64,000 bases of DNA from Laetmonice hystrix (GCA_965235115.1 OZ249436.1:20772001-20836000), one strand, 5' to 3'; numbered from the stretch's first letter, positions 11,670 through 33,093 are shown. The notes: generated by a model from the letters alone, not told the origin. A program made the numbers and translations.

Positions 11670-11945
11670 TTATCCCCTGAAGGGTGCTTGATGTGTTTTA
11701 AGGTGTCCCTTTAAATGATCTGATCGAGTAAATGTTTTGCAGCAGACAGGACAAAAGTGTTGTGGTTGCTTGTGCAGTCTCCGGTGGCGGTACATGTTTG
11801 AAATGTTGGAATAACTGTTGCCACAATCGGGACAAACGAAAGCTTTGGTAGGTCCTTGTCCGTCCGGATGACCTCTGCTCCTGTGGTCAGACGAATCTAT
11901 TGTGAAGCCCACTCCTGCCGACTGATTGCACATTTCCCTTTGGCT
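11670..11945 (-). CDS. Gene A alternative terminal exon 2: two C2H2 zinc fingers
   Basis: Acceptor tctttgtttgacag|AGC, phase 0, compatible with the constant-exon donor at 16202. Encodes SQREMC...FVCPDCGNSYSNISNMYRHRRLH...CPVCCKTFTRSDHLKGHLKTH...stop. Confidence 0.8.
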   Translation of the reverse strand, partial: SQREMCNQSAGVGFTIDSSDHRSRGHPDGQGPTKAFVCPDCGNSYSNISNMYRHRRLHKQPQHFCPVCCKTFTRSDHLKGHLKTHQAPFRG

Positions 11946-13772
11946 CTGTCAAACAAAGATGAGAACACACCTTATATACTCTTTTTCTTGTAAGTTTTCA
12001 TTAGCATAACATAGAAATGTACATGTACTAGGCCTTAAACAACTTAGTAATATTACATTTGTCTAGACTGACCGTTTATAAATTATTCTAGGTGAAGTTT
12101 TAGTTTTACAAGTGCACGGCTCTATAATGGCAGGCATGGCAAATTACTCTTGCCGGACACCACGGGCAAGCTGATCAAAGTTAAGCAAGTCCAGCACACT
12201 GCTCTCATTAGCCTAACACAACGCATGAAAGTATTAGGGGCAATTTGATTTCAGAGGAGGGCAAGTAGATTTCGATAGACCACTTGCCCCGTTTCAAGAC
12301 AGTGCTCAAACTGAACAATCAGTCACCCCTGAATGGGAACGTGGAATATGACATAAAAAAATCAGAATGTAACATTGTAAGCCAAAACAAAACCAGCCAA
12401 GACTTGCACTCCCTATTCAGACATAATTAGAAGAGGATAAATTAATTTTCGCTGACCTTTTTGTTGAAATTGGATATTTTATGTCTCTTTATCACATCAT
12501 AAAACATGTACTGTCTGATATACTGGTAGACTCTGACTGCCCATTGTAACGTATTTTGGCACCAAGTCTACAGATAGGGGCCTACTTTACCTCTTAGTGA
12601 AGTACCAGTATTATCTTGTGAAGAACTGCATTGAAACATAATTTAATATGACCAGATGGATGACAATAAACTGACACAATTCGATGGTTCAAGTAGGTCC
12701 GACCAGAGTGGCTTGGTAAAACACCATCATGTAAGCTGTCGTCTTCAAGGCCAATACATGTAGCACTGCGAAATGTTATATTATTTTTTACCGATTTTAA
12801 ACTGATTTTTTTAAAGATATCCCCACCTCAGAAACAAAATTCTTCTGCCAGCTAATTAGAATACACCGTACTTGTAAGCAAGACACTAGCAAACATCTGA
12901 TTGCAGATTTAGTTCCACACACTTGGTCATAGAAACGTACATCACTTCTAAGTATCTAAAGATTCAAATAAAATGGAAAATCAGGAATCTTGATCCAAGA
13001 GCCTTTCAGATTTGGAATACTTTTTCTTGGATGTCTCCCACTCCACTAAATTTTCAAAAAGCCATAGCACAAAACCTCAAAGATAATCTGGGTATGATAT
13101 CAAAAACCATTTCATCTTTTTCTTTTCAATGACAGATCACAAACAAATTTTTCCTGAACCTTTCAGTTTTCAGAAACACTAATGTAAATCGAAATGTGCT
13201 GATCAAGGTACCTTTTCAAATTTCATTGTCACGGAAAGATATTTTCACCCTGGGCACCTATAAATCTTATAGGAACCACCAACAAATTCTGGTCTGCACA
13301 CCTGCACAATTCTGCACGGACTGTCGGCGCCCTTGGTAGTTCCACTTGAAGAAAGTTGGATCAGACCCAGACCTGGGGCACATTATATTTCATGTCTCAC
13401 AGTCCACACGTGAAGGCATCCATCTGTAGCTCCCCCGCAACAACTTTTCTACACCACAAAATTAAGTTCACTGCCAATAAAGATTTTCCAAATAACATGT
13501 ATGGGATGCCTCTAACTTTTAATCATACCTTATCCATGGAGTAGGGGGCTAATTAGGACATGTGACAAATGTCCCAAATAAAAAGGATCAATTTTGTATT
13601 TAGAAAGTACCTCTGGCCCCTCCCCCATTGTTCAAACATTGTTTGTCAATGATTTTTGCTGATGTTCTCTCCTGATTTGCACAAAACACGGATTCATTTA
13701 TTTATCTTCATTTTTTTAGTCAACTTTGGGGGAGTACTGCATGGGAAACACCGTAGCCAACTGACTAATTTG

Positions 13773-14039
13773 TCATTTGTCACTACGGATATAGTCTGTT
13801 TGCAGCCTTGAGGATATCAAGCCTGATGAACTAGTACTGGAGTCGTGCAGTCTATGTCTCCTCATGTGTGTCCGAAGTACATCAGACCTTTTGAAGCCCT
13901 TTTTACACACTGGACAGACGTAGCCGTTCTGGTAGTAGTGTGTCTGACGATGCCGCAGCATGTTTTGTTTCTTCGAGTATGACTTGCCACATATTGGACA
14001 GGTTGCCCGGTCTTCTTGCCCATCATGCTCATCTCCAAT
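13773..14039 (-). CDS. Gene A alternative terminal exon 1: two C2H2 zinc fingers
   Basis: Acceptor attttgctgtgtag|ATT, phase 0. Encodes IGDEHDGQEDRATCPICGKSYSKKQNMLRHRQTH...YVCPVCKKGFKRSDVLRTHMRRH...stop; minus-strand AATAAA at 13697-13702. Confidence 0.82.
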   Translation of the reverse strand: MGDEHDGQEDRATCPICGKSYSKKQNMLRHRQTHYYQNGYVCPVCKKGFKRSDVLRTHMRRHRLHDSSTSSSGLISSRLQTDYIRSDK

Positions 14040-14432
14040 CTACACAGCAAAATAATTATAAAATTGAGTCCAAAACGTTGACAGATTGTTGGAAATTTGG
14101 TGCTTTGTTTGCTAGCACATGTTTGTGATGCAATTCTTTCATGGAAATAAGTTTGAAGGTGCAAAGTTTGTCTTGCTTTAGAATTTTACTTTTCTAAATA
14201 TGCTTGTGTATTATTTTTGACTTCTCCAACATTTTCACAACCCCTTGTCCATGTGTGCTGTTTTGTTATATATGGTTCAGGAAATATATTTGTTATTATT
14301 TATTGCAATTTTCCCTAGAAATCAAGAAAACTTTCAACCAGTCCTCAAAAGAAAATTTGTTGCTCAAGGTGGTCAATCCAAGGCTGGTGACTAGGTACTT
14401 CTTGACATTTGTATTAAAGCAATCACCAAGTA

Positions 14433-14754
14433 TCCCTCATTTCAGAGACTCCAAAATGCAGACATGGACTGTCAGGTTACATAAAGCCTTAGAACTGGAG
14501 AAATCTAATGAAATTTAACATTCAGTTGCCTGTTGTCGCCACGAAGCGAATGTCTCATGGCTGGTTGTTGACCTAGCATGGACTTTGGACAGCCAATAAA
14601 ATTCATCGGGCGATGAACTGATGAATTCCATTGGCGTTTCAACTAGAACGTTAAATTTCATCAGATTCCTCCATTTCTGTGGGTGAACATTGATTTATTG
14701 ATTTATGTAGTCTAAGGCTTTACATACATTTTGGAGTCACTGAAATGAGAGACA
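14433..14754. mobile_element. MITE, shared family with 31015-31378
   Basis: Inverted termini catttcagagactccaaaatg / catttttggagtcactgaaatg; related copy at 31015-31378. Confidence 0.65.
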
Positions 14755-15741
14755 CTCGATGATTGCTTTAACAAGCAGAGTGGTCAGTCTGTCAATTAAA
14801 TTAGAACTGAGCTGGCTAAAGTGCCTAGCCTCAGTACCACCTGACCTGATACTAGTGAATCAGTATTGATTTAGACCAAGGGACCGTTTCACCCATATTT
14901 TTCACAGATGAATGCTTCACCAGAGTTTGCTGGTCTAATTCACAAGTAAACGGACAGCTGGTGGAATAAACACCGATCTTATTGTAATTAGTTAGGTACC
15001 TTTATAGTCATGCACTATGTATGGCAATATTGCTATATAATACCCCGTAGTATAAGCTGCCTCAGGACTTTGGTGCATCCACTCACTGCATACAAATTTG
15101 GCACCTCGGTCCATACTGAATCTATCACGGCAAAATCAACTGAACTTGCTTTCGAAACTATCAACGAAATCTATTTGTGACAACGTAAATCAATGGGAGC
15201 TGGTGATGACATTCAGTCACCACAACATCAGGCTCAATACCCTCCAGTAGTGTTAACTTTCTATCGCCTGACGCTCGGGCTACTAAATTCTCCAGTCGGG
15301 CTACTGGTGTCTACTGAGGGCTTGAGTCAATGGGCTACCAGTTAAATACTCTCCATCTGGTGGACTGGGACCCAGCTAAATAGGGGTACACATGTAGTTC
15401 TATTTCTAACCATTTTCCAAAGCTCACTGGTCTTTAGTCAGGTTTCTTCCGGAACATTTTTGTTTGAAATAACTGAATTACTTGTAAGAAAAGGTATAAA
15501 AGGAATGGCAGTGGGGAAGAGGAGACTATATGTGATGGGGGTAAAAATTTTAACTCTTTATAAAATTAAATGCTTAATCAACCAGTTTTGCTATAGGCTA
15601 CCAGAATTTCAGGGTAGTGGACACAAGGTTTGGGCTAGTCAGTTTTTTTCTGCTGCCTAGTCCCGGGCTATCAGTTACGGGAAAAAAGTACACCACTGCC
15701 CTGTATCAGTCATCAATTTCTAGACTTTCAGTTTCAAGAGC

Positions 15742-16059
15742 ATAGGGAGTGAAAGTAACGTCACAATCTTGTGGGATTTTGCCAATTCCTGGGAATATGC
15801 CGCTTGGCGGCAATGTTTAAAGCAATGGACGAAACCTTACGACATCCCCCACCAAGCCTACTACAAATTGTGTACAATTATTAATTTCCAACTTTATACC
15901 CTGAATGATAAGCCTCAAAATATTTTTAACTCTGCTTGTATCTTCACATGCTGCAATTCTCCTATGTTTACACAGTTTACAACTGTGCATCATTCCCTGG
16001 AAGTGGCTCAGTTCCACCCATTATCGTCCCACAGGGTGATGTCACTTTCACTCCCTATT
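15742..16059. mobile_element. Small TIR element in gene A intron
   Basis: atagggagtgaaagt..cgtcac..tgtggga at 15742 is matched in inverted orientation at 16027-16059. Confidence 0.55.
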
Positions 16060-16201
16060 GATAACACAAGGGCAGCCTTTACTTTTACATGGGAACTAAG
16101 TTACTAGAAAATTTCATGTCATCAAACCTAAACCAAGGTTTCAAGGAAAAACAAGCACATATAAATTTCAAAAAGAAATGTAAACCACACCACTGTTATA
16201 C

Positions 16202-17179
16202 CTTGTTTGTCACATAAACATCTGGACACCATGTAGAACTGGATGCATCAATTTCCTGAATACTTTGGCCAGTGTGCTTCGACTGTTGATTAGATACATG
16301 ATGCAGTTCCACTTCATCTCCCAGATGTTCTGACCACACAAATCCTGCCATGCCATGAGAGTCATGTCCAATGAAATACTCATTCTTTACTTCATTCGAC
16401 ATGGCTAATTCTGACTGAAACTGTTGTACTGATGCACTGTATATTTCTTCAGACTTTCTTCTGACAAAATCTGGTTCCCTATCCAATCGTCGTTTTGCTG
16501 GAGGTTCGTTACATCCACCAGAACTGGTGTAAATGTCATCATCATTCTCTTCACGGTCACCAGTGTCAACCTCAGAACTTCTTCCATTACTTGTGTTTAA
16601 ATTCAAATGATGAGGTGAAACCCATCCTGAAGCTGTTGACTCATCTCCTGAGCATTCTGATTTCTGTCTTGGTGAATGTCTCCTGTGTCCGATGATTCGT
16701 GCCGGATTTGCTATTTTTGAGGCAGCTGTGAATCCATTCTCTGGTCCATTTTCCTCAAAATCTGTTACTTCAGCTACTTCTTGTTTGATGATATTCGAAG
16801 CTAAATTTCCATTTTTGCTAGTCCTTGTCAGTTCATGGTTCTTTGTGTTACTTCCGTACGTTCTTCTTAAACCTTGATCTGTACCATTGCCTTTCCCAAG
16901 CTGCCGTTTATGTCTACTTGGGACACTCTGATTTAAGGAAATATATTGATCAGAATGTTCTGCAGGGTTACTTTGAACTGCTGCCTTTGTCACTTCTATA
17001 TCATTCTTGAAATTTTTGCTGATATGTACAAAAAATACTTCGCTGTGGTCTATGCTGACGCCTAGGAGACCTTCCACAGACAAATCTTTGTCAAACTGCA
17101 GGCTGTTTTTACACAGTAATGTTACAGTGTCAATGAGGAGACTCTTTACACGCTGTTGCTCAGGTTTTAACTCAGCCAT
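16202..17179 (-). CDS. Gene A constant exon: unrecognised ~55-aa N-terminal domain plus disordered linker; putative zinc-finger transcription factor with alternative C-termini
   Basis: 326 open codons. Acceptor tatttttcag at 17282 with an in-frame stop before the ATG. N-terminus EQQRVKSLLIDTVTLLCKNSLQFDKDLSVEGLLGVSIDHSEVFFVHIS is paralogous to the ORF at 25294. NLS-like PPAKRR and SUMO-like IKQE. Phase-0 donor AAG|GTATAA at 16202/16201. Confidence 0.85.
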
Positions 17180-19418
17180 CCTGAGGTTCCAATTGAACTG
17201 TCCTAACTTTGAACACAGACAGAGTGGTGTTGCTGTTGAGAACTTGGCAGAACACGCAGTGTAGTCGACTGCTGCAGTTTCCTGAAAAATAGATTATACA
17301 ATGTAGGTCTAAAGAATTCTACAAGAAAAACCACAGCATTTACTTTGCAAAGATACTCTGTTCAAAAGTAACATGCATATGTCATGGCTAAATCTTCAAA
17401 TTGATATCATTGCCACTGGCTAATCCTTTAAACTTAAAGTTAAAGTACAGAATAGGCACATGTATGTGTGATGTGGTTAAACTTTTTGGCAAGTACCTTA
17501 ACTGAGACCACCAGAAATTCCTGCAGACAACCAAGGTTCCATTATATGGGTTGTCCGGCGGACAACCCGAGAAAAAAATCCTTAAATTGAATGCTGATAA
17601 GCCTAGGTTTATGGGAAATAATGCCTTTGCAAAGCCTTGGCCTCCTGAGAAATAGTGTTAGGTGCACTGAAATTATATAAGTAGATGATATATTTACAGT
17701 TAACATGCGTTTTCTACAGACAGCCCACACAAAAGGAAGTATGGACCATGGTGACATTGAATTTGACATCAGTGTCATAGTATTTGGATGGCACAGCCAT
17801 CTGCGGACAGAAAACTTTTGAATTAAATAGGCTGCAATACAGTGCATTTGGAAGCATACATCAACTCTCAACATAGCCTACTCAAGAATCAAGCGTTTTT
17901 AAAATAAGTAGGCCTATCAGCAGTTTTTAAGTTAAGTGAAATTTTATTACCTTTTTAAAATCAGAAACACTTGTTTTTTTTCATTAAAAACAAACATAAT
18001 ATTAATATGTAATGCGGTAATGGGTTTGACTTAGTTGACTTAGCACATGACCTTAAAATTTTAAGCCTGCCAAGGGAGTAGGCCTAAGGCCTTGTGCCAC
18101 CCTTGTGCCACCGCCCTCTGCGAGTCTGTGAGTGTGACTACTACGAACCCACTACTACAAGTGAGTGCGACTGTGGAGTGTGGTGGTATAAATAAAATCC
18201 CAAAATCGGTACATTCAAAAACGCTGACGGTGCCCATGCATGGGAAGAATGACGCATTCCTTCCAACAGACCGAGACAAAAGCAAGGCTGGTAGTTCAGA
18301 GTGACCCCCCCCCCCCCCCCCCATCCCCGACCTGACTGATTTTGCATTGCCAATCATGCCCGGCTGCACCATCTATAATCGAGGAACCCCCCCCCCCCCC
18401 CCCCCCCCAAATATTTATGAACAGCCTATCATTATCAATCATGCATTACTCCATAGCCATAGGCATAGCCTAGCCCTAACGTTAGGCCTAATAAAAGTAG
18501 TATGGAAGAGAACGCCGATGCCCCCATGGAATAACTACTTTGTGTTCTAAACAGATCTACTGCTTTACGAAAGCGTTATCTGCTATCAACGGTCTGTTCT
18601 TCATGCTATTTTGAGGAGCACTTACATAAAACTAGGCCACTGCATCACAGCTGAATGGCGTTTTCAAGCTTTTTTCGGAACCTAATTTCTATGGCCTCGC
18701 TTTGGAACCACACAGGACTCTGGGAGCGGTTCGTATTCTGTTATCCTCACCATCCACTACCACCGTGTAGACAGTTATGTGCTGAAATTGTTCATCACAA
18801 TGGCATGAGAAGTGTTACATATCAATCGTTAGATAGTTTAAGATCTATCGTGCTGGAAACATATTAAGGCATAAAACATATCGGTCATCATAAATTTTAG
18901 TTAGATAATGACAGGCTCCCTCGAGCTAGCCGTTTCCTTATCGAGTGTGCAGCTTTGTCGTGAATGTGGGAATATCTCCCAAAATTTATATATACCACGG
19001 AAGAAATTACTCAAATAAGACATTTAAATGAAAGGTAAGATCATTTTTTGCCAAATGCACCAGTAGTAATACTAATTCGATTCCTGAATAGTCCAAAATA
19101 CGTGACTGACTATGATTTGGGAACCATCGAAATTTGAAGGAAATTTTAGGGATTCTTTTTAGTATTTCCGCGAGGTGGCGCAACTGTATAAACACGGCAG
19201 GTCACAGAGTTAGAGGAGGCTAGGCCAGTCTAACACCTTGCATGATGCAGTGTTAGAGTTGATAAAATTTAATGCTAGACAGCCGCGAAATCTCTGAAAG
19301 TTCCCTGGACTTCTGCAGAGCTATTTTAAGCGTGGCGTGTACTCGCTACACATCTACTATGATCTAGGCTATGCGCCGTACTGACTGTACAGTGTACACA
19401 TTCCGCTCAGTCACCTTC

Positions 19419-19772
19419 CCGGTGTCGCGGTCTCAGATCTCCGTGGTCTCAGAACTCCGGGAGGTTAGCTGCATCGCCGTGTGTTCTAGTCTAACTATCC
19501 GAAATATCAGCTCTCAGTTGAGTCACACGTAATAACTCTCATCTCCTCTACGATACTTGGTTTACAAATTACAGTTTACCTATCCAGACTGTCCTTTAGT
19601 CTTGTTTGGAAGAAAACTCCACCGCCCATCAGCTAGCACTAGCAGACGACCGGAGGTGTGAGCCCAAACAGCGACTCGCGCGTGCTCATTTAGTCAGATT
19701 CAGCATCTAAACAATAGGAAACCATGCCCCCGGAGTGCTGAGACCAACGGAGATCTGAGACCGCGACACCGG
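19419..19772. mobile_element. MITE family 'ccggtgtcg/ctcagatctcc', copy 2
   Basis: TIR ccggtgtcgcggtctcagatctccg / cggagatctgagaccgcgacaccgg; inverted relative to 1209-1550. Confidence 0.8.
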
Positions 19773-20225
19773 CTTGAAGCAGTCACTTGCCGGGACTTGG
19801 ACGCGCCAAGTCCCGTCCCGGGACTTGGACGCGCCAAGTCCCGTCAGCAAGCAGTTGACCTGTCGGTGTCCTGCAATAATAATATTTTATTAATATAGCC
19901 GCTCATTGAGCAAGGCTTCTTTAACTGGCATAAATCCATCTAGTTTGACCGCAGGCCCTACCTCGTAGGGGTACGGTAGCGTCATCATCCAGGCCCAAGA
20001 GATATATTAGGCTTTGTGCAATATGAAATTTAATATGTTTTGCATACGACCATTTCAAATCATCAATAAAATATTTTTAAAACCTGGAAGTTTGTGACTC
20101 TTCTACCTAGTAGCGCTTGTTAAGCAAAATCTGTCACGACGACCTATACAAAAAAATAGCCAGAATTATTCCCCACGTATAGTAAGGTCTCCGCAGATGT
20201 CTTCCTTTAGTTTTAGCAAGACTCC

Positions 20226-21382
20226 TGGGGCCCATTTCACTAACAATGTCCCCAGCCAAAATCCCCACCAATGTCCCCAGATTGGAGACATCCCCACTCA
20301 AGGTGTTTCACTAAAAAGTCCCTCCCCCGGGACGTCCCCGAATCGGGGATTTTGGTGGGGACTGCTTCTGAGCAGTCCCGCCAAGTCGCCAATAAAATAA
20401 CGTTAATTATAGGTATATCTTTAAGTAAATAAAGCTAAAATGTGTCTAACCGTAAAGTAGAGATCTTGCTGTCTCTCCCCAGTGCCACGAACACAACGTT
20501 TGTGTTTACAGAGAGCGCTACGTGACGTCCAAACAAACCATTGCCTGACATCAAAATAGACAGTGATTCTAGCTGACACAGTTAACGGGCATGGTGGACG
20601 TCTAAAATAACGTGTTTTGGAATGTTAGTTTATCATAATCAAACAACATCAGGGCTGTCCATCTGTCGCATTGTCGCAAAAAATGTGCGACAAGGACCAT
20701 GAAATTTGCGACAAGGGCTTCCCCCCGCCCCCCAAAAAAGACACCCCCAAAGACCAGACACTTTGCTCCAATCAGTTGGAATTCTGCTCCAGGATTTGCA
20801 AGGGTGGCCAGCCCTGAACATAAGTCGAGCTCATGATTTTAGTTACATAGATTGTAAAAGGTAAGAATGCAAAATGCACTACAAAAGGCATTAAAACAGC
20901 ATGTTTTAAGTTTCTCTGCTGGGCGAATTATCATCAGCATAAGCGGCAATCGGCAACCTGTGACATTTTGTTAGTGAAACAGTCATCGGGGGATGTCGCC
21001 GGGCTGTCCCTGTTTTGGGGATGTCCCGCTTGGGGACAAACATTCTTAGTGAAACGAGCCCCTGGGGCCCGTTTCACTAACAGCGACATCCCTGCAACAT
21101 CCCTGATTTAGGGGGCATCCCCACTCAAGGTGCTCTGCTAAAATGACCTCCCAGTGACATTCCCAATTCAGGCAATATTAATTTCAAGGACATTTTAGTG
21201 AAACAGGGGTGCGTTCCACTAAGCCCGAAAGACGTCTTTGAAATGGTCGCTGAGCCCAAAGAGGTCTTTGCAGCAACGGGTGTGGACACTAACCTCCTAT
21301 TCTTTAACATTGGCCCCGCAAAGACTTCTTTCCAAAGACGTCTTTGCTAAAGACGTCTTTCGTTAGTGGAACGCACCCCAGG
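20226..21382. mobile_element. Cluster of abutting or nested GGGGC-terminated MITEs (PIF/Harbinger-like, CWG targets)
   Basis: ggggcccatttcactaa...ttagtgaaacgagcccc, then ggggccccgtttcactaa..., then ggggtgcgttccactaa...ttagtggaacgcacccc (the last family is also at 2224-2400 and 2480-2580). Confidence 0.65.
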
Positions 21383-22289
21383 ATGTCTCCGATAAAACAA
21401 GAGCTAGACAGCAAAAAAGTGTGGTCTAGCCTTCTATTCACAGCTGTACCGCGCGTCCTCCCTATATGCATGACCACACATAGACATTTGAGCAGCAGCA
21501 CGCTAAAATAATGCTATAAAGTTCTATGAAATAAGGATTCACACACATCTTGATTCATATTTACATTAAAAGACCAACTCCTCACACTAGTATCAACAAG
21601 AAGATATAGGCCTACACCTTCTTAAATGTTTTAAAGGTGGTTAAACTGGATGACCTCCCGAGTTCCCAACTTAAACGCTGCTGGAACTCTTTATAAAGCG
21701 TTAGACCTAATATTTGTTTAATGTTGTTTGTTTTCCTCAAATTAGAAATAACCCAAGCGCATATAAACACCTTTATCCATGCGCCAGCAGGGTTTCCTGC
21801 AGGCCCTTTTTTTTTTGGGGGGGGGGAGACTCCCCCCCCATTATTTAACTACTCCCCCCCCCCCCCCCAAAAAAAAAAAAAAATTCCAGGGGGAAATATT
21901 TTGCATTACTCTCTCTTCCTCCAAACTTGCAGCATTCCCCCCCCAAAAGTCGAAAATCTCCAGGAAAATCTCGATCCATACTTCGCGCCATAAAGGAGCC
22001 TCGTTCTGTTATCTGTTTATATTTGTTATCAAAACGTATACATATATATTCAGACATGTATGCTGAAATTTACACAGGACTTCGGACAATGATGAAACAA
22101 AATGTGCGATATTTCAATCAACCCTAAATTTGTGGTAAAAATCCCTAATTTTTCTCTGATTTCACAGTGAACTGACAAGATATTACCACTTCTTGAAGCA
22201 GGCAAAGAAGTCTGCTAAAATACCAGAAACGTTGATTCTTCCAAATAGATCTACCTCCTTGACTGAACATTTCCTCGGATTTCCCTTAC

Positions 22290-22544
22290 CTGTGACGTCA
22301 CATTGTCATTGATAGGAATCTCTGGTTTTCCATGTTTGTTTTATCTGTTTTTTATGACAGTAGGCTCTCAAGATCATGATGTTATCGTAATGTAAAGGGG
22401 GCCAAGCCAGGGAAGGCCAGGCCACAACAAAAACAAACTGGACCACAGCCCCAAAAGAGGGCATGTCCAGATCTGCAGCCAGGCCCTTGTTAAGCTGTAT
22501 CCTCACTGGACGTGTGCGATGTGAGTGACTCGCGCGTTTTTATA
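22290..22544 (-). promoter_or_regulatory. Candidate promoter and non-coding first exon of gene A
   Basis: Minus-strand TATAAAAA at 22537-22544 followed ~250 nt later by a strong donor CAG|GTAAGG at 22290/22289. Confidence 0.35.
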
Positions 22545-23037
22545 GAAGTGATGGAAATAAGTGGAGCCATTTGTAGTTGCACTGGCCGCGTTGCGACACA
22601 GATAGGACCTGGTTCTATTTTTGTCGCACACTTAGCGTGACAAAACATCTTGACCGATCAGAACTGAGATCTACGACCTTGAACTTTGTTCAAGAGCGTC
22701 AAGAGATACACCTATACACGGCTATAGCCTACTCATTTTTAATTGATTTTAACACTGACATTGTATCTCAGGGAATCCCCGAGCTATTGTGTACACAATC
22801 TCTAGTAATCTCGTAATGCAAACAATCGTGATTTGCTTTTCTGTGCCCCCTCTCCGGGTCCCCTTTAGTGATATCTTGGATCCGTAAGTGATAGATGTGC
22901 ATAATATTTAAATATGTTCCCAGGCCCATAGTCTATACGCAGACGTATCACGCGCATCTGGTGAAGATGGTGGAAAATCGCATCGCACGCGTCGTGCACG
23001 TTGCGATAACGTTAACACTCTTCCAGATAAGGACACT

Positions 23038-23192
23038 GGGGCCGGTTTTACTAAAGGTCGAAAATAACGACGTCGAAAGTTTAACATAGAAGTGAATGGT
23101 TGCTAGGTTGTTATTTTCGACCTAGCAACCCATTCACTTCTATGTTAAATTTTCAACGTCGTTATGTTCGACTCTTTAGTAAAACCGGCCCC
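23038..23192. mobile_element. Palindromic MITE
   Basis: ggggccggttttactaaa...tttagtaaaaccggcccc near-perfect foldback; degenerate copy at ~5495-5630. Confidence 0.65.
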
Positions 23193-24593
23193 CGATTACT
23201 TCTCAGAGGAAGAGATGGAAAACAGTGCCTGTATTTTAAATTTGACATTTTGGTAAATGTCCTGTGAATTGTCCCAATGTCCGGTGAATTTCAGAATTTC
23301 ACCGGACATTTGTCCAGTGAAAGCTCAGAAGATTTCACCATGTCTGTGTATGTGTCATCCTCCCGCGCTCGGGGTTGAACCGTTTGATTCATCCCCTCCC
23401 TCCTGCCCGTCTATTCTTAGAAACGCGTGGCTCGCAGCGCCATCTGTTTTCCCCCTTGCTGCCGTCTGCTGCACAGCTCCATCTGATTAATAGCTGCTGC
23501 ACAGCTCCATCTGAGGCCCGATTAATAAAATTAGCGTGCATTTCTGGTTAACCAATAGTACGTTCGGACCGGAACGTTGCCACGGTGAAATTATTGTTGT
23601 TAAAGCAATGGCGAAGCCAACGATAGCAGCAACGGGTAGGCATTTAATCCTGACAGTGACACTATAGTGACAGTGGGAGGAACAATTTTGAGTTGACAGG
23701 GCTGCAAGAACACACACTATAACTATAAGTATTAGCTATCCCAACCTATAATTATTTAACCCACGGCACGGGCGAGACCGAGCCAGCGCCAGCGACACCG
23801 GGCCAAGTCGCGAGCAGGCCGGTGTTCGAAGTGCAGAGAGCGACGATGCAGAAATCAGGGGAGCTAAACTTTAGAATTTCGCGTGTTAAACCGTATCAAG
23901 TCAGAGTTCTACAAACTGTATTGTTAGGGAGGGACACATTTGTTTATCAGGGAACTGGGCAAGGCTATCAGGCATTTTTGCGAGAAGTAAGCCTTCGGTG
24001 AGGACCGTTAGTGCGGGTGGAGCGACGATGACAGGTCCTATTAATATTCATAAGGTTGACCTCAGGGTCAACTTCCGCCCGGTTAGCATGGGCTGAGCTC
24101 AAGGGGTAGAATGCAGGATGAGCGATGCCCCTTGACAACTCAAGATGTGTGTGTATAGGGTCCGAGATCTTCGATATATCGCACCACTCTCTGATCGCAC
24201 CACAATTTTTGTTGCGACCTGTATGTACAATGCATTTTTACCCTGGTGTCAGTGAAAATATTGCTCTACCAAAAACGGACCTCTCCTGTGGTCTTCTTAG
24301 CTGTTTCATGATAGTGATGAACCACATGTAGCCAAGTGATGAACCACATGCATTTCATGACATGCTCTACCCCTGGGCCTTATTGAATAATAAATTGAAT
24401 TGCATTTAATAAGAGGCCGAGGTTAATTACACGTGGTATCCTCACTGTGCAACAAATTTGACTTCGGGCCATTTTGTTTTAAAAAAACAGTGCCTGACCA
24501 GCCATGCGGAACACTATTCAGACATGAATGGTGTCAATTTGAAACTAAGATCGACAAGATGACCTAACTGTGTAAGATTTAGGGAAATTTGCA

Positions 24594-25023
24594 CAGGGTT
24601 CCCACGGAGTCGGGATGTCGGGAAATAGTCAGGAAACCCATCAGGTCGGGATCCTAAGGTTCTCTGAAAAGTCCTGATTTCATCACAAAAGTCTTGAAAT
24701 TACGAAAGCCAGTGGCTTGGCTAGCCCAAACCTGTACTTTCCTAGCCAGGGACTTCGACAATGCTCCACTTGTCAGTAGGGCCTAACCAGAACTTTGGTT
24801 TGTGAAGTTTTTCAAATTTAATATAGTTTCAGTTTTAAAGATGTCAGACTATATTTTATGAAACTATAAATTTATTTTTAGCCTCAAAACAGGTTAAATG
24901 CCTTGATCTTTTTTTAAAAGGTGGTGGGGTGGGGTGGAGGGAGGACTTGACATTAGACGCAAAGTTCTGAAAAAGTCGGGAAATAGTGCTGATTTCTATG
25001 GGTCCTGATCCGTGGGAGCCCTG
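24594..25023. mobile_element. CAGGG-terminated non-autonomous DNA element
   Basis: cagggttcccacgga ... tccgtgggagccctg inverted termini, flanked by tttgca on both sides. Confidence 0.6.
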
Positions 25024-25293
25024 TTTGCAACTGTTTCACTTTTTTTGATACATCCTGTATAGTTTAGCTACAGTTGCTTCATTGTAAACTGACAGAAGGG
25101 ACAGTTTGATAATTTAGTCATTCACTTTTGACCATAATTCACTGCCATAGATGTGGGTGCTTCTTAATTCTGTTATTATCTTTTTTTCTCTTCATAGAAG
25201 TTGACCTCATCTCCTCATCGAAATTCCATGAATGATTGGTGAAGGCAGAACGACCAAGAACGACGGCACTGGTGTATCACATGTGTTAGGAAG

Positions 25294-26331
25294 ATGAAAG
25301 CCGACCAAGAGAGGGTTAAGCACCTACTGACGGACACTGTCACCTTACTGTGTAAAAATGGTATTCAATATTCAAAGGAACTCCGGATTGAAGCACTGGT
25401 GGGCATTACTGTAGACCAGCATGACGTTTTCTTCGTTCACATCAGTGAAGGATTCCTGAGTTCCTCTGCTGCTCAAGCAAGTACCAAAGCTGCAGAAGGG
25501 CCCAAGGATAAAGTAACCACAACAGCTGCAGCGTCTTTAACTGACAAAATACAGATAAAAGCTGAAGCTGCTGTAGAAGAACAACAAGAGACTGCTTCAC
25601 CACCTACACAGACTACTGCAGCACCTACGGCAGCAAAGGTTATCTTGCCTCGAAAGTCAAATGATACACACAGTCCAAGCGGCAGCACCAACAGTCCAGT
25701 CCACCAAGCCAGCCCTCTTCCACAAAAACAAGTTTCAAAGGATGAAGAGTCAGAACAATGTATAGAGATCATACAGCCCCAAAGTGTTGATACATTGAGC
25801 GATGACGATGTGTTGGTTATAAGTCCACAGGTGCCCACAAAGTTAAAAAACCCGAGCCAAGTTGCTCATGCTGCAGTTAAAGTAGCTGGTCAAAAGAGGG
25901 TGCTTCGTCACTCCCAGAACCAACATCAAAAGGTGACTGTAATATCACCTGACAGTGATATCAACTTAGATGATACACAAGCTATGCAGCAAGGCTATTC
26001 GAAAGTAGTTGGAGAGCTTTTAGTGCATACACAGTATTCTGATTATAAATATGAAAAGCCTGAAGAAATTGGTGAGCCTCAAGTGAAGAGACAAATGCTT
26101 GATTGTGACCAGAGTAACAATGGCTACATGTCTGGTTATGGTCAGAAAGTAAAGCACGTAGACACTGGGAGTGACCATAACCTGGGCACTTCCTGGCCAC
26201 ACCTGTCCAGCATGACGGGAGAGTTTTCAGGACAGATGTCGGGGGAGAGTCCTCAAACCGGGTCACTCCCGGGATGTTCGTCATGGCAGTCGCTCTCAGG
26301 TGGCAGTCAAGTGGCAGCAGGATCAGAACTA
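25294..26331 (+). CDS. Gene B constant exon: same unrecognised N-terminal domain plus disordered linker
   Basis: 346 codons after an acceptor (ttttctcttcatag, 25197). MKADQERVKHLLTDTVTLLCKNGIQYSKELRIEALVGITVDQHDVFFVHISEGF aligns ungapped to gene A (31/54 identical by my count). IKAE, DDDVLVI and EPQVKRQ motifs. Phase-0 donor CTA|GTAGGT at 26331/26332. Confidence 0.85.
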
Positions 26332-27428
26332 GTAGGTGTCACTTTAAATTAGGGATCTTTGTTGACTATGTATACAAGTTTGCAAAAATTAGACCCAAGT
26401 GGTTTTTAGCCTTGGCCCAGCAGCTGGGCCAGGCTTTGGTCATACTCCTTGCCTTTCAGAACTACTGTCTCCCTTGTTTTTTTCTATTTGCTTTCACATA
26501 GTGCCATAATTTTATCCTATTTAGGAATGCCATGATGTAGAATGTGCTTTTCTTCAAATACTAATCCCTTTGAGTAAAAACACATTCAATTTATTAAGTA
26601 AAATTAACGAATGTCAATTTTTCACCTGCCCCCAGATGAGTGTACTTTTGGACTTTGCTGTCAGGAAGAACGCTGCTCTCAAAATTGCTGTCATTGGTCA
26701 TTTTTTATTCAGAGAGACCTAACAAACATTTCAAGACTATTTTCAGCTTTGCACTCGTTCACTTGAATAAATGTCATTTTCGACCCCCCTTTGGGGGGTT
26801 GCTGTCAGTGGCGTAGCCACATTAAAAATTGCTGTCACCAATCAAATAAAGATTGGGCACTGTTTCCAGCCTTACCATCGTTCACTTGAATAAATGTCAT
26901 TTATTGCACCTTTGTTCAGGTATTTTGGGGGTCAACGCCACCTTGCTGGCCCGGCAGCAATACCTTAAATGTCAAGGAATGACTCTAGAATGAATCCATG
27001 AAGTCAAACCTTTTGCCCTTATTTACATGATTAAACATTCTAGGCTCCCGGTCTAACTCCCCCGTCCCCGCGACGCTGCCTGCTGAAAAACCCCTACATT
27101 GTAAACGATCTTGTCTTACTTATTAGTGACTTTTAATGTTGTCTATTCACTACCTAGTAAATGCCGCGCCATTTTTTAGTCCTTTGGGACTAGCTTGCAG
27201 TATCTACTGGGCATTTTGTTGGCCAGATAGTAGCTTGTTTGGTGTACATGCGTGCCTTAAAAAATCTGGAACCGGGACGCCGGAGACAACCAAAATTTCC
27301 ACTCCTATTAAGGCGATAGCATAGGTACTCGCCGGGCTACCGACCCTATGTCTGCCTGGCCAGTGGACTACCATGCAAGATTTTTCTAGACCTGTGTGTG
27401 ATTGTATTAGGCACGGAGCTTTTTTCAG

Positions 27429-27635
27429 TGTCCAAGCCAAGGCAATGGAAGGCATCTCAACGACACTCAGTCGCCCGATATGTCCAACAATGTGCAATTG
27501 TTGGAGATGTCAGATGAAGACCTTCTTGAATCTACAAATCAATGGATTATATCTGTGTGTGAATTTGGATTACAGAATCAATGCAAGGCAAAGAAAAGTA
27601 TATTACCTGGGTGCTCCTGTCACTCTCATGCTTGA
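27429..27635 (+). CDS. Possible additional phase-0 terminal exon of gene B (68 aa, no recognised domain)
   Basis: Acceptor ctttttttcag|TGT opens CPSQGNGRHLNDTQSPDMSNNVQLLEMSDEDLLESTNQW...CHSHA* in phase 0; could be chance. Confidence 0.3.
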   Translation, partial: CPSQGNGRHLNDTQSPDMSNNVQLLEMSDEDLLESTNQWIISVCEFGLQNQCKAKKSILPGCSCHSHA

Positions 27636-27801
27636 ACACAAGTTCTACTGTGAAACAAAGTTTCTGCTTGGTTTTAAAACTGGAGTGAGAATATAACACC
27701 CCACCCCCACCAACAGCCTGCTATTTTTGGAAGAACCTTCTTTTTTAGTGGGTATTGGTAAGAGCAGGGGATAATTATTGTTGGAGTAACTAAATGTTTC
27801 C

Positions 27802-28220
27802 CAGGGTGTGCAGCAACTTGAAAAGTGCTTGAATTTTCAGGCCTGGCTTGAAAAGTACTTGAATTTTGACAGGGTTTTGAAAAATGAATAAAAACCTTGA
27901 AAAGTGCTTGAATACCTGTGTTTTATCCTTGAATTTGGTGGGAGGGAGGCAGTAACGAAATCGGGGCATGATGTACATGTAGTCTTAAATTCTTAGGGAT
28001 TTTGACTGCTCGCAACTGCCGTCGGCTATTCTCCGTCATTTTATTTTTGCACAAAAAGTATTGCATGAACAAGAAACATATCTGCAGTGACTAAAGTCAG
28101 ATACAGTCCTATTAATTGACCATACTAGCTCAGATTTTGCCACGTGCATGTCCTTGAAATTAGAGAAAATGGCCTTGAAAAGTCCTTGAATTTTTTTGGT
28201 GAAATTTGCTGCGCACCCTG
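27802..28220. mobile_element. CAGGG-terminated non-autonomous DNA element
   Basis: cagggtgtgcagcaa ... ttgctgcgcaccctg inverted termini with repeated cttgaaaagt.cttgaa subterminal motifs. Confidence 0.6.
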
Positions 28221-28413
28221 TTTCCAGAAGTAGATTAAAGAAAATAATAATAAAAAAGCTTCAAGTGTCATTTTTTAAAAAACCACTGGTTATACAAACA
28301 GGATAATTTACTTTTTTGGGCCAAGGTTAATGCAATAATGGTGTGCTACTCTGAAATTAGAAAGTTATTCCACTTGTAATGTTCACAGATGTGCTTTGTC
28401 TAAATATTTTCAG

Positions 28414-29449
28414 GTTGATCATAACCGCGTGGGAATGTACCCATTGAGAGAATCAATATTAGAGCGTCGATTTGCCGCACGCACCAGACAGAATATTCCA
28501 GGCAATACCCTTAGGCGCAATGAATGGGCAATGCGTACATTTAATTCATGGGCAGTTGCTCGTAATGAAAGAATGGCCGATGCCAGTAGCATTGACACTG
28601 TTGCAGTGAAAGATGAGTACACTAAAGTAAAGAATCTTGACGTTATGACTATGAGTGATGAAGAGTTAAACTACTGGCTAGGTAAATTTGTTGTTGAAGT
28701 CCGGAAGGTTGATGGAACAGAATATCCACCGAGAACCATAATGTCTATTCTAACGGGCATACAGTCCTACATTCGCCTGGCGCGCAACCGTCAACTTGAC
28801 ATAATGACAAATGAAGCATTCAAAGGTTTTCATCAAATCATGAATTCTGAATTAAGTCGTCTTTCAGCAAGTGGAGTGGGTCAAAAAAGGAAAGAGCCTG
28901 TAGTGTTTTCTCTAAGTGATGAAGAAAACCTTTGGAAAACTAAGGAACTTGGAGACCACAATCCGGTGATGTTGTTGAAAACTCTGATATTGCTTAATCG
29001 GAAGCATTTCGGCCTTTATGGCCGTCGAGAGCATCGCAACCTCCTCTTCAACCCTCCACAAATAACACTTCATGAACCACCAGGCAAGCTGGCATATCTA
29101 AAATTCACTGGCGATACATCCAAGAAACCAGGAAAAATTGAAAGAAAGGAAGTGATCTACCAATTGGCCAATCTGGCCTACCCAGAGAGGTGTCATGTGC
29201 AGCTGTATAAAACGTACATGTCCTTGTGCCCCCAGGATGGGCGAGATGGAGCATTTTACCTCACACCCCTGCAAAATTCAAAGGACAATACTAGGGGAGT
29301 CTGGTACAGCCGCCAGCCTGTAGGTGCAGCTCAGTTAGCCAAATACATGGCAGAGATATACAATAGAAACTCTGAGGCAACACAGTTTGAGGGGGAAGGC
29401 GAGCAAGAACATCAGATTATAGAAGGGACAGGGCCCAGATCAGTGCAAG
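28414..29449 (+). CDS. Gene B alternative exon: Crypton-derived tyrosine-recombinase-like (DUF3504; ZMYM/KCTD1/QRICH1-like) domain
   Basis: Acceptor atattttcag|GTT, phase 0. Motifs NT.R...WAMRTFNSW, ELNYWLGKFVVEVRKVDGTEYPPRTI, HFGLYGRREHRNL, ERCHVQLYKTYMSLCP, FYLTP and WYSRQPVG are typical of DUF3504 proteins. Probable donor G|GTAGAG at 29449. Confidence 0.82.
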
Positions 29450-30009
29450 GTAGAGTATTAAAGTTTTTATTGTCCTATTATGTAAGTCTTTACATCTGGG
29501 CTTCCTCTAGGCAAGAATAGTCCTTAGCCACCGTGACTAAACGGGTAATCAAATGTTTTAGCCACATCAAAATTTTTTTATCCATTTTATTTTTTCTCAC
29601 TCGAACTAAATAAAATATAAAACCTGGAGTTGTGTACACGTTTCAGAAAAAATGGCATGAATTTCCTCCATCTCCGGATTTTAAAGTTCGCCAGTGTGGC
29701 GAAAACATGGTGTGTTTTGTTATATTACGTTTTGCCACTTTGCTATTGTTTTTGCCAAATGCGAACGTGATGAACGGCTAGCGGAAGCCCAACCCATGTA
29801 TTTAAGCCTCATGCACTGCCTAGGTACCTTGTAACCATCTAAGTTACAACTCACCGGCATATACATTAAAATTATAGTGGCCAAATTTGTATAGGCCCAT
29901 GCCTCAACGTAAGAGGAGGTGTTCTGACTGTGTCTTTCATATGACATTTAGAGAATAAAGCTGTGGTTGGTTTATACACAATATATAGGGTCATCTTGTT
30001 TCTTTTCAG

Positions 30010-30056
30010 TCCCAGGTGGAAACCTGAAACATGAGGGCGAAGGCCTCGAGTGTTGA
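30010..30056 (+). CDS. Probable short last coding exon of the DUF3504 isoform
   Basis: Strong acceptor tcttgtttcttttcag; a phase-1 join gives VPGGNLKHEGEGLEC*; AATAAA at 30249-30254. Confidence 0.5.
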
Positions 30057-30554
30057 GGTTTTTCACCAGGCACACAGGTAAGTTGAGCAGCGCTATTGTA
30101 AGAATTGTGAATGGCCGTGAGCCTCCTCCCAATAGCGAAGCTAAACATACCTGTTGGCTGGTAGAGGCTGATTATCTTTAGCTATCTGCACCTCGCACCC
30201 ATGACTGGCTGTTGCCTCTTGTAGGGCAGTGCAGTGTCTTATTTTCAGAATAAAAGTTCTTAGACTTGCCCTCAGGAAATTGAATTATTTTTGTCCATTC
30301 TGATTTGTCAGGGTCTCACATTTGCTGAGAATAGTTTGAATTATATGGCAGGGTTCATGGGTAGTGTTGCCAGAACATTGGTGACCTTAAACTCTAAAAC
30401 ATACTATTGGTCTGGCAAGCGACATAAATCCATGTGAGTTACATCATAATTTACATAACTGAAAAATGACTTGTGTAGATTCAGGTAGGTATCTGGTTAT
30501 ACAATAACTATTTATTATGTAGACATACTAAATGGTATTTTGTATATTTTACAG

Positions 30555-30743
30555 TGGGAGAACGTGCTGGAACGACAACGGACTGTAGTTCAGTGGAAGC
30601 CATATGTGTGCACCATTCCGGGATGTGGCAAGGGCTTCCACCATTTACCTAGTCTGTGCAAGCATCGGCGTGTCGCCCATGGCTTCTCCAAAGGCAGACA
30701 TCAAGACCAAATGGCTCACTTCAACCAATGGCAGTCTGACTAA
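30555..30743 (+). CDS. Gene B alternative terminal exon: single C2H2 zinc finger
   Basis: Acceptor atattttacag|TGG, phase 0; KPYVCTIPGCGKGFHHLPSLCKHRRVAH then stop; AATAAA at 31736-31741. Confidence 0.78.
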   Translation, partial: WENVLERQRTVVQWKPYVCTIPGCGKGFHHLPSLCKHRRVAHGFSKGRHQDQMAHFNQWQSD

Positions 30744-31014
30744 TAATACCTCTCATAGACTCGGATTATAAAAGGAATGCAGTTGTTAACTCAACAAACA
30801 GCTGACAAAGAGACATGTTGTACATGATCTTTCAGGAAAAATACTCGGAACATTTAGCATAAAGTTGACATAACTTGTTCTATATGAATTCTCTAAGTTA
30901 TCAGAATTTCGCTTATTTCAATACTGATCCACATGTCTGTCTCAGTCTAAGGCATTCTGCACTACACATGGACACCGAGCACGTATTTTGAAGGACATTA
31001 AAGCCATTCACGAT

Positions 31015-31378
31015 TGTCTCCCATTTCAATGACGCCAAAATGCAGACATGGGCTGTCAGGTTAGATAAGGCCGTAGACTACATGTAGAAATGGGGAAAGC
31101 TAATGAAATTCAACATTTCAGTTGCCTGATAAAATCATTGACCTGGCATTGACTTGAACAGCCAACGAAATTCATTGGTTCACTGGCTGATGAAGTTCAT
31201 TAGCTGTTAGACCTGTAAACAACCAGCCATGGGACGATCGCTTTATAGCGACAACAGGCAATTGGAATGTTGAATTTCATTAGATTGCTCCATTTCTGGG
31301 TACCCATTTATTGCTTTATGTAGACGAAGGCCTATCCTAACAACCCATGTCTACATTTTGGAGTCATTGAACTAAGAC
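31015..31378. mobile_element. MITE, shared family with 14433-14754
   Basis: ttcaatgacgccaaaatg / cattttggagtcattgaa termini and a shared internal sequence. Confidence 0.65.
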
Positions 31379-32358
31379 TTTATTTATTAAAATTTTGAGC
31401 ATTCTGACATTTTCCATTTTACCTGAAGCTGTCTAGCTACATGAAAAGTACACGTGCTTCTTTATGACTGGAATTATGATATACATCACTTCTGTGTCTT
31501 AATTGAGAAAGGTATAATTTTATACCATTGTCTTCATTGTGTACCCTTCTGTGTACTTCTGCCATTATTACATTGTATCTGAAACCAGAGTAAATCCACT
31601 TCGTAATTGTTGATTCGTTGACAAGTATCCTACCTTGAACATCTGTATGATGTTTGAACACTGAAGAAGGAATGCATCTGTTGTCTTAAATTATACATTG
31701 ATCGCTGTATTTAAGTTATTGAATATTTCTGAGAGAATAAAGAAGTATATTTTTCAGTCACTGTTTTGATTTTTTTTTTTTATTACGCTGTCAGTAGCAG
31801 ACTTCTTGTTTATAGGAGTTAATCCGAGTTAAAGAAAATGTAAACTCTTGACCGTATGTTTACTCTCACAACAATCCATTCCAGTGGCCTTATTCACTGG
31901 TCCATTCTAAATTCATCACATCACATCACAAACCGTTACCAAACAAAAACAATTTATTCCTTTTTAACAGTTTTGCTTGAATGAACATCTAGGCCTCCAC
32001 TGTAATTAGTGGCTGTCTGGCTACTGGTTGGCATAATTTTGAGAAACTGTGACTCAAAACACGGGCAGAGGAAAACATTGAAAGGTCTTCTCTGAAAAAT
32101 AGAATGTAAGGGGGAAAAGACAAAAAAAAACCGCCCCCCTCGGGTCTCGGTTCCAATGTCTGGGTATCGTAAGCCTACATGTAGACATAAGAAATTATGA
32201 CTATCTGGCGTCGGGCTGTTAATGGTTGATTCACATAAACAAAACTTTTGTCTAAATATGTGACAGATTTATGTGACGTCTAGCCGTATTATCATTATCG
32301 AAATTATGACTATATGTCATAGTGATATTCCTAATAGCTGTAGTATTCCTTTTTGCAG

Positions 32359-33093
32359 GGAAATTCCTTCAGCAGCCCAGTACGTGGTTACAAGAACCCT
32401 CGTAATAACACCATGTGTCAGCCTGTACGGGACGTCCTCGAGAGTAGCCTTGCCCTACCTGTACTCATGGAGGCCAAGAAGGTGACAGCCTTTCGACTTT
32501 TCTGGCGAGGACATGACACTATTCAGGGGTGGGAAAACATTATCTACAACCGCCTGGAACTCGACGCCCTAATCGCTGACCATCCGGGGGTTTCGTTCTT
32601 TATATCGGCCGTCACAGCCACAGCACGAGACATTAAGACGACAGCAGGTAATGTCGACGCCCGGCTACGAGCCTATCCAGCTCTCGGATACTGGGTGGCC
32701 TCCAGAGAGGCAGATTTTGATCAACATTTTCTCATGAAGCGCTTGACAAATGCAGCAACTGGAGCAGAGCTGAAGACGATGCTTCAGAGCGATGGTGAGA
32801 AAATGACCGAGGTGGCAGCACTCAATCTCATTGTGAAGGATTATGGTAAGGGATATGTTCAGCAGAGAGTCAGTGAGAGTGCTTCCATTTGTTGTAATCC
32901 CGAAGAAGAACATCCAACAATTCGCTTCATCCTCAAAGAAGACTACTTTGAGGAGAGACTTCGAGAAGCAGTTGATCTCCTTAATGGTGTGGGATGTCCT
33001 GTGTCCCTTGAGAAAGTAGATCTGGACGGAGCAGAGAATGATCAGGATATCCAAGAGGAAGAAGAAGAAGTCGAGGACACTGCGACCACCTAA
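32359..33093 (+). CDS. Uncharacterised 244-codon coding exon with acidic tail; either another gene B terminal exon or a separate gene
   Basis: Acceptor attcctttttgcag|GGA in phase 0; long ORF with globular-looking composition, more GC-rich than its flanks; internal ATG (MCQPVR) also available; no domain recognised. Confidence 0.65.
   Translation, partial: GNSFSSPVRGYKNPRNNTMCQPVRDVLESSLALPVLMEAKKVTAFRLFWRGHDTIQGWENIIYNRLELDALIADHPGVSFFISAVTATARDIKTTAGNVDARLRAYPALGYWVASREADFDQHFLMKRLTNAATGAELKTMLQSDGEKMTEVAALNLIVKDYGKGYVQQRVSESASICCNPEEEHPTIRFILKEDYFEERLREAVDLLNGVGCPVSLEKVDLDGAENDQDIQEEEEEVEDTATT

Follow-up and report, generated by a model that had tools for sequence, protein, structure and literature searches.

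Candidate alternative last exons arrayed behind a new N-terminal domain in a gene family of Laetmonice hystrix

Introduction

In Drosophila, lola, mod(mdg4), fruitless and broad are BTB genes whose alternative end exons encode zinc-finger or FLYWCH domains, and in mod(mdg4), and partly in lola, the variable exons are trans-spliced. We know of no documented example of such swappable arrays of DNA-binding last exons beyond a few arthropod BTB genes. Here we describe a stretch of 64,000 nucleotides (nt) from Laetmonice hystrix (GCA_965235115.1, OZ249436.1:20772001-20836000; hereafter the window, about 42% G+C and with spliced genes) that holds two divergent genes, A on the minus strand and B on the plus strand. 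Each has a constant coding exon followed by several exons that open at an acceptor and run to their own stop. An earlier interpretation made from the window alone (the sequence-only reading) had taken A and B for a head-to-head pair of lola/mod(mdg4)-like genes lacking a BTB domain. From the analysis reported here, A and B probably belong to a family of modular nuclear-factor genes that has expanded in this lineage, with alternative last exons laid out as in lola.

Results

The constant exons of genes A and B

The constant exon of gene A lies inside an open reading frame (ORF) at 16196-17293 on the minus strand, and that of gene B inside an ORF at 25243-26352 on the plus strand (Table 1). Both are about 1.1 kb long and end at a phase-0 donor, at 16202 and 26331, respectively, as had been proposed. 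At the 5′ side, the A exon opens at the acceptor ttttcag/g at 17281 and the B exon at a strong acceptor at 25197/25198.

Four sequencing runs (X1-X4) carry the locus, all of them from one sample and one study and none of them recorded as RNA. Runs X1-X3 have even depth across introns and exons. Run X4, of 59 million letters and of a kind not on record, is read as RNA-like because its contigs end at, or jump between, splice sites. For X4 we used contig-level data only, and its contigs were examined over one 20-kb stretch, with 31300-33093 (which holds the exon starting at 32359) outside it; such contigs drop rare forms, and a junction missing from them is not proven absent. The matched part of X4 contig 27 is exactly 16202-17280, flanked by 9 and 50 letters that do not align, and both borders of the A constant exon are therefore used as splice sites. 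X4 contig 28 stops matching at about 25196, and the 98 unmatched letters left of this point indicate a spliced 5′ exon upstream of the B constant exon. The interval between the two genes, 19300-24640, holds very high-copy repeats, where the summed depth of the DNA-like runs reaches up to 38,000, versus about 57 over single-copy exons. The 5′ exons of A and B must sit in or beside this interval.

The B donor is weak, and the scoring matrix favors a site at 26299/26300, which is in phase 1. We chose 26331 because it is homologous to the conserved exon end of the family: the B exon end SEL/VGV fits the family pattern, and the ortholog P0010 ends ...SGSEV/V.

When A and B are aligned, only about 55 amino acids (aa) at the N-terminus match (56% identity, E 3e-20), and the remainder of the two constant exons is mutually unrelated low-complexity sequence. 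The two genes had been called paralogues with a constant exon of about 1 kb each; what they have in common is the N-terminal segment and not a 1-kb domain. The lack of a BTB domain was borne out by a Pfam scan of both constant exons, where the sole match is a weak DUF4116 below cut-off.

A new N-terminal domain shared by a gene family

We refer to the shared segment as the N-domain. An AlphaFold2 model built from 37 sequences predicts a helix followed by a hairpin (Table 1) at a predicted local distance difference test (pLDDT) score of 89. The N-domain has no Pfam family, 0 matches in a PDB sequence search and no usable match in the ESM Atlas, and Foldseek against PDB returned nothing at E≤1e-3 for its model or for the model of the ~230-aa module described below. 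Weak Foldseek rows (SRF/MADS core, E2F-DP) were given no weight. From its position and conservation only, we infer that the N-domain may be a partner- or self-binding handle, like BTB.

In public data, the N-domain profile matches 1,694 cluster representatives at E≤1e-3, 1,061 of them at E≤1e-10. The match nearly always begins at residue 1-20 of the protein, and 149 of the 150 best N-domain proteins have no Pfam family. Three proteins from other organisms (P0006, P0171 and P0200) have two tandem N-domains at the N-terminus. The four named members are all annelid and are labeled 'hypothetical' or 'C2H2-type domain-containing'; in annelid annotations, the gene models splice the N-domain exon onto exons that encode C2H2 fingers. 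We found no description of the N-domain, or of such arrays outside arthropods, in the open-access papers searched.

Searches of the L. hystrix genome itself covered 627 Mb in 35 contigs. They gave 42 N-domain matches, 37 of them at E≤1e-3 and all inside open frames of 71-837 aa. Contig C1, which is 11.8% of the genome, holds 32 of the 42. The system had been thought to consist of two head-to-head genes; the pair is there, and its genes are two members of a large family. Three head-to-head pairs lie on C1: 20789003-/20797294+ (A/B), 47051904-/47055023+ and 31683733-/31691610+.

Module exons behind each constant exon

Five downstream exons, which we call modules, had been predicted to open at a phase-0 acceptor and to run to their own stop, at 14039 and 11945 behind A and at 28414, 30555 and possibly 32359 behind B. 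All five have these acceptors and stops, which gives two supported modules for A and three for B. The two A modules hold two C2H2 fingers each: the 14039 exon (acceptor tgtgtag/ATT, 88 codons) matches Pfam zf-C2H2 at E 9.9e-14 and 51.4 bits, and the 11945 exon (acceptor ttgacag/AGC, 91 codons) at E 3.8e-9 and 36.9 bits, against a cut-off of 25.2. The B exon at 30555 is below that cut-off (E 7.4e-4, 20.3 bits), with the pattern C-x4-C-x12-H-x4-H present. A pattern scan of the whole 64-kb window found three real C2H2 frames, namely these three exons. The 28414 exon carries, in one uninterrupted exon, matches to QRICH1 (PF25561, E 2.5e-18, 66.7 bits, cut-off 30.8) and DUF3504 (PF12012, E 1.1e-33, 117 bits, cut-off 29.7); it encodes a Crypton-derived domain, for which DNA binding is possible but not proven. 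A sixth candidate exon, at 27429, was dropped: apart from its good acceptor, it shows neither a Pfam match nor a finger, none of the family loci holds a relative of it, and it occurs as a single genome copy.

X4 contig 25 (1,587 nt) has 14029..13302 spliced straight to 11945..11300, by way of a donor CAG/GTGTGC at 13302 that lies about 470 nt beyond the stop of module 1; X4 depth is zero across 12634-13300. The modules had been said to be impossible to chain because each carries a stop, and for RNA this is wrong. Upstream, the 9 unmatched letters past 16202 in contig 27 fit 14039-14031 by their number, contig 25 ends at 14029, and the variable site 14030 is without X4 cover, which together point to a junction from 16202 to 14039 that would be split in X4 by an expressed single-nucleotide polymorphism at 14030. 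For gene B, X4 contig 31 lies inside the DUF3504 exon (29068-29328) at lower depth, and X4 cover is low or nil over 29309-30642 and other bins.

Table 1. Exons, domains and candidate exons of genes A and B, in window coordinates
Feature	Position	Strand	Description
A constant exon	16202..17281	-	ATG 17179; phase-0 donor AAG/GTATAA after 16202; from ORF, splice sites and X4 contig 27
A N-domain	17012..17179	-	~56 aa, helix + beta-hairpin; 56% identity to B; profile matches
A module 1	13302..14039	-	phase-0 acceptor 14039; two C2H2; stop 13773-13775, then ~470 nt to donor 13302
A module 2	11670..11945	-	phase-0 acceptor 11945; two C2H2; stop 11670-11672; RNA runs at least to 11300
B constant exon	25198..26331	+	ATG 25294; phase-0 donor CTA/GTAGGT after 26331; 5′ acceptor 25197/25198
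B N-domain	25294..25479	+	AlphaFold2 pLDDT 89; helix 2-23, strands 29-40 and 44-55
B module, QRICH1 + DUF3504	28414..29520	+	phase-0 acceptor attttcag/GTT; read-through stop 29518-29520; Pfam
Putative mini end exon for DUF3504 module	30010..30056	+	phase-1 donor 29449/29450; read from sequence only
B one-finger module	30555..30743	+	phase-0 acceptor ttttacag/TGG; 62 codons, own stop; xKPYxCxxxGCxK-type C2H2
B ~230-aa module	32359..33093	+	phase-0 acceptor tttttgcag/GGA (score 11.2); 244 codons, own stop; alpha/beta
Unsupported candidate exon	27429..27635	+	good acceptor only

Phase-matched finger exons across the family

We compared 10 kb from each of 20 paralogs, plus A and B, for a set of 22. 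In 18 of these genes, a phase-0 site is the best donor of the constant frame, and it stands behind a conserved S-[DE]-[TM] end. Downstream frames with the C2H2 pattern on the same strand number 44 and occur in 16 of the 22 genes, with up to 7 per gene within 10 kb. Their best acceptor is in phase 0 in 34 of 44 cases (binomial p 3e-9), as compared with 28-30% of fingerless control frames (95/317 on the same strand and 147/518 on the other). The stop of a finger frame lies a median of 11 aa past the last finger, and a phase-0 donor of at least 5 bits precedes the stop in just 2 of 42. With stops so early and phase-0 donors so scarce, the finger frames are, in coding terms, end exons and not links of a chain.

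Three long same-strand downstream frames (L048:7137-7628(-), L036:7892-8605(-) and L049:5423-6133(+)) hold neither a finger nor a ~230-aa module, and one frame of this set has a weak match to DUF7769 (E 0.0018, below cut-off). These frames may be further kinds of module.

A ~230-aa module found only behind N-domain exons

The B module at 32359 has 8 paralogs downstream of five other family genes (26-46% identity). A search of the L. hystrix genome for this ~230-aa module gave 56 matches with 26-47% identity to the B copy, all free of internal stops. All 56 lie 1.8-50.5 kb downstream of, and on the same strand as, 10 N-domain exons, with no N-domain match between, and the arrays behind the 10 exons comprise 1, 1, 7, 2, 17, 1, 2, 6, 17 and 2 copies. 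In the nine modules that were read, the best acceptor is in phase 0 in 9/9, and six of the nine have no ATG before the first conserved helix. Since the module occurs only behind constant exons, keeps its frame and mostly has no start of its own, splicing to the constant exon is hard to avoid, and since a gene may have 17 stop-terminated copies, such splicing would have to be alternative.

The ~230-aa module has no Pfam match, and nothing above noise came from a PDB sequence search, where the best match spans 26 residues at E 0.02. Its AlphaFold2 model has a pLDDT of 83 and a predicted template-modeling score of 0.80. When the model was compared by VIA-align with SIRV1 ORF119, the Z was 7.9 (root-mean-square deviation 3.5, 111 aligned), where the tool's caution line is Z 8; the other Rep-type proteins gave Z values that are all <8 (Vientovirus Rep 6.3, B19 NS1 5.5, geminivirus Rep 5.4, Helitron 5.3 and AAV Rep 5.3). 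These Rep-type (HUH) matches are mixed among many ferredoxin-like folds, and there is no HUH motif in the conserved columns of the module alignment. We treat a possible Rep-like (HUH) nuclease or origin-binding fold as a lead, not a finding.

Copies of the DUF3504 exon

The DUF3504 exon family has 24 matches in the L. hystrix genome, about 10 of which, scattered over other contigs, are close copies at 44-61% identity; several of these contain stops. The sole other copy behind an N-domain exon is at L045 (Pfam E 2.4e-15), where the spanning genome match has one TAG. The closest copy, L051 (G000:C12:14628300-14630300, 61% identity), opens with an in-frame pyrimidine tract and CAG (...FYTCSLQ/). 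As there is no N-domain match on its contig, contig 12, L051 may be the end exon of some other gene. The distribution of the copies and the acceptor-like start fit an event in which a Crypton-derived domain was captured and came to serve as one more end exon. Capture of Crypton-derived DUF3504 is documented for vertebrate KIAA1958, where isoforms a and b carry different intronless DUF3504 exons, for KCTD1 (isoform b) and for bird ATF7IP (Kojima and Jurka 2011; PMC3212892); the same authors are the source for loss of the recombinase catalytic R-H-R-Y residues as a mark of such domains. Fusion of host and transposase sequences by transposase capture is described in general terms in the preprint 10.1101/2020.05.07.082677.

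N-domain genes in other organisms

In one 90% cluster of Logan-derived proteins, 3 members are spliced at ...LQRK/MEGEH to a one-finger end and 3 read through at this point, and the join of a constant exon to a finger exon is therefore real in another organism. A one-finger end of the form xKPYxCxxxGCxK... is common to P0076, P0078, P0097, P0139 and the B exon at 30555, and this type of end is probably ancestral.

Metagenomes gave 80 loci with an N-domain, of which 66 were analyzed once repeats of the same gene had been removed. Loci L053, L059 and L110 have 2-3 modules each, and the two one-finger modules of L059 are near-identical and resemble a recent duplication. By tblastn, no ~230-aa module and no DUF3504 was found in the 80 loci. 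A subfamily of N-domain proteins of 630-715 aa (L084, L099, L102, L112 and others) ends in a conserved ...FDTEDSDMHAQM stop and has no finger exon within up to 8 kb downstream, so not every member has a DNA-binding end.

Other features of the window

A tandem array at 43493-45072 consists of 31 copies of a 51-bp unit with 92% matches and can be read without a stop in several frames of both strands, over as many as 543 codons. At 39675-40160 lies a 161-codon frame with a signal-peptide-like start and no Pfam match, which is probably the first exon of an unrelated secreted protein.

Discussion

We propose a gene plan in which a short 5′ exon would be followed by a constant exon of about 1 kb, made up of the ~56-aa N-domain and a low-complexity linker and ending at a phase-0 donor. 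Downstream on the same strand there would be one to many module exons, each with a phase-0 acceptor and its own stop, and of three kinds: C2H2 fingers, the Crypton-derived QRICH1+DUF3504 or the new ~230-aa domain. Most likely, the modules would be used as alternative last exons that are chosen by 3′ splice-site choice together with polyadenylation, and one N-terminal part would then receive differing C-terminal heads, DNA-binding or other, much as lola does in flies. The architecture gives good support to a lola-like design on a new domain: exon borders, phases and stops are established, as are the arrays throughout the family and the fact that the ~230-aa module occurs only in linkage with N-domain exons. 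What we infer from this architecture is alternative use, in that the constant exon of a gene would be joined to several of its modules. The claim of a lola-like system is accordingly upheld as to layout, and extended to the whole family. Its other part, one donor joined to several acceptors, was not seen in X4.

A number of observations weigh against alternative use of the modules. The two finger exons of A are chained in one X4 RNA, from which translation would stop in module 1. Because contig 25 crosses 11945 unbranched, a junction from 16202 to 11945 is absent or rare in the X4 sample, and no second junction from either constant donor is seen in the X4 contigs listed. For gene B, contig 30 (26052-26432) reads through the donor at 26331 at a depth similar to that of the exon, and no B junction is among the X4 matches listed for the 20-kb stretch. 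Hence, among the junctions that the sequence-only reading expected, 16202 to 14039 is the one that the X4 contigs point to, 16202 to 11945 was not seen, and those of B do not appear among the matches listed. The read-through frame at the B donor is ...GSELVGVTLN-stop, and a product of the constant part only, without an end module, may be real, because X4 reads through here and half of one foreign cluster does so too. Moreover, X4 itself is one run of unrecorded kind, from the same sample as the DNA runs. Protein searches gave no product joining the A or B constant exon to any module, and a search of longer proteins gave no long protein that holds the ~230-aa module. A profile of A plus B found, among proteins of similar length, only the read-through ortholog P0010; P0005, the only match of the B constant exon among longer proteins, was discounted as it is not an ortholog. 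A poly(A) hexamer lies within 600 nt in 25 of 42 finger frames, where chance alone is estimated to give about 58%, so the AATAAA motifs that had been cited in support of the modules carry no weight. Finally, most of the 66 metagenome loci have 0-1 finger module in the available flank. The expectation that N-domain exons are followed by arrays is thus confirmed within the L. hystrix genome, where the arrays reach 7 fingers or 17 ~230-aa modules, and is for the most part not borne out in the available flanks of the loci from other organisms. Because the foreign loci mostly have 0-1 finger and lack the ~230-aa module and DUF3504, the long arrays look like an expansion in the lineage of the window.

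Several of these points would also be expected if each gene made a single isoform, with only the first module coding and the others being recent tandem duplicates that lie in the 3′ untranslated region or go unused. Contig 25 has A module 2 behind the stop of module 1 with no skipping junction seen, the near-identical pair at L059 looks recently duplicated, and most genes in other organisms have 0-1 module. However, old untranslated copies should have decayed, and the 56 ~230-aa copies are all intact at 26-47% identity. Phase-0 acceptors are likewise kept, in 34 of the 44 finger frames and in all nine modules read, and the 91-codon frame of A module 2 is intact and begins precisely at a strong acceptor. 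We therefore consider single-isoform genes to be unlikely, and prefer alternative last exons.

A different way to account for the read-through of the B donor, given that the DUF3504 exon has some X4 cover, is that the modules are expressed alone from their own promoters or are trans-spliced to the constant exon, as in mod(mdg4). An ATG lies just before the conserved domain in 3/9 ~230-aa modules, including that of B, and the DUF3504 paralog on contig 12 has an acceptor-like start with no N-domain match on its contig. On the other hand, a usable ATG is missing in the other six of the nine, the bias toward phase 0 is understandable only if the modules are joined to a coding donor in phase 0, and every one of the 56 modules has the same orientation as the N-domain exon upstream of it, which would be needless for independent genes. 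On balance, we rate own promoters or trans-splicing as less probable still than a single isoform per gene. As for the downstream frames being chance frames or transposon debris and not exons of A and B, the unsupported ORF at 27429, the dispersed DUF3504 copies with their stops and the high-copy repeats that flank 26.6-28.2 kb lean that way, but the use of the 11945 acceptor and the 13302 donor in RNA-like X4, the Pfam-level domains, the phase statistics and the linkage of 56 out of 56 modules already largely refute this for 14039, 11945 and 32359 and leave it very improbable as a whole.

If alternative last exons are indeed what these arrays provide, then the logic of lola arose on an unrelated, unnamed N-terminal domain that lacks a Pfam model, and the design came to pervade a whole family of genes, whose arrays match those of lola in length. 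The new elements are the N-domain, likely a protein-protein handle, and the ~230-aa module that is restricted to these arrays. Tentatively, and as a possibility that falls just short of probable, the scheme can be taken further: about 40 genes would join the 56-aa handle to up to 7 finger exons or at least 17 ~230-aa exons (the latter encoding what may be a Rep-like DNA binder that has been disarmed) and also to captured Crypton domains, for several hundred isoforms, and the scheme would have evolved in a lophotrochozoan lineage, separately from the arthropod BTB loci. The series from 1 to 17 modules is natural material on how arrays grow by tandem duplication and capture of mobile-element domains. 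There is also a warning for annotation, in that annelid gene models of the N-domain family, with one product per locus, may chain or drop modules.

This bears on the named members of the family. In KAK2144882.1 (Paralvinella palmiformis), KAK2177203.1 and KAK2160293.1 (Ridgeia piscesae) and KAI0222081.1 (Lamellibrachia satsuma), the N-domain is at residue 1 and is followed by a long linker and C2H2 ends, and these four annelid proteins are true family members. The annelid models give one product each, and no domain or isoform system is described for them.

With regard to the capture of mobile-element domains, the DUF3504 module resembles KIAA1958, KCTD1 isoform b and bird ATF7IP, where a single-exon DUF3504 is an alternative end of a host gene (PMC3212892). 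The N-terminal host part here is the new N-domain, and DUF3504 is here one module among finger and other modules. The layout is also like that of transposase-capture fusions (10.1101/2020.05.07.082677), in which a mobile-element domain bearing a splice acceptor is located behind host exons and alternative splicing joins the two. The fusions in that preprint are from vertebrates and involve domains of DNA transposases, whereas here the arrangement is repeated across a family and stands beside C2H2 modules that are not mobile.

The nearest parallel in design is with lola, mod(mdg4), fruitless and broad (see also PMC13490949), which share with A and B one or more constant 5′ coding exons, one donor and an array of phase-matched, stop-terminated end exons that carry a DNA-binding domain. 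In the lola group, the system differs from the one described here in three respects. The modules here include Crypton-derived and ~230-aa domains, with alternative use as yet unproven and one RNA in which modules are chained. There is no BTB here, and the shared part is instead a new 56-aa helix-hairpin domain. And where the lola group consists of single loci, the design is here carried by a family of about 40 genes.

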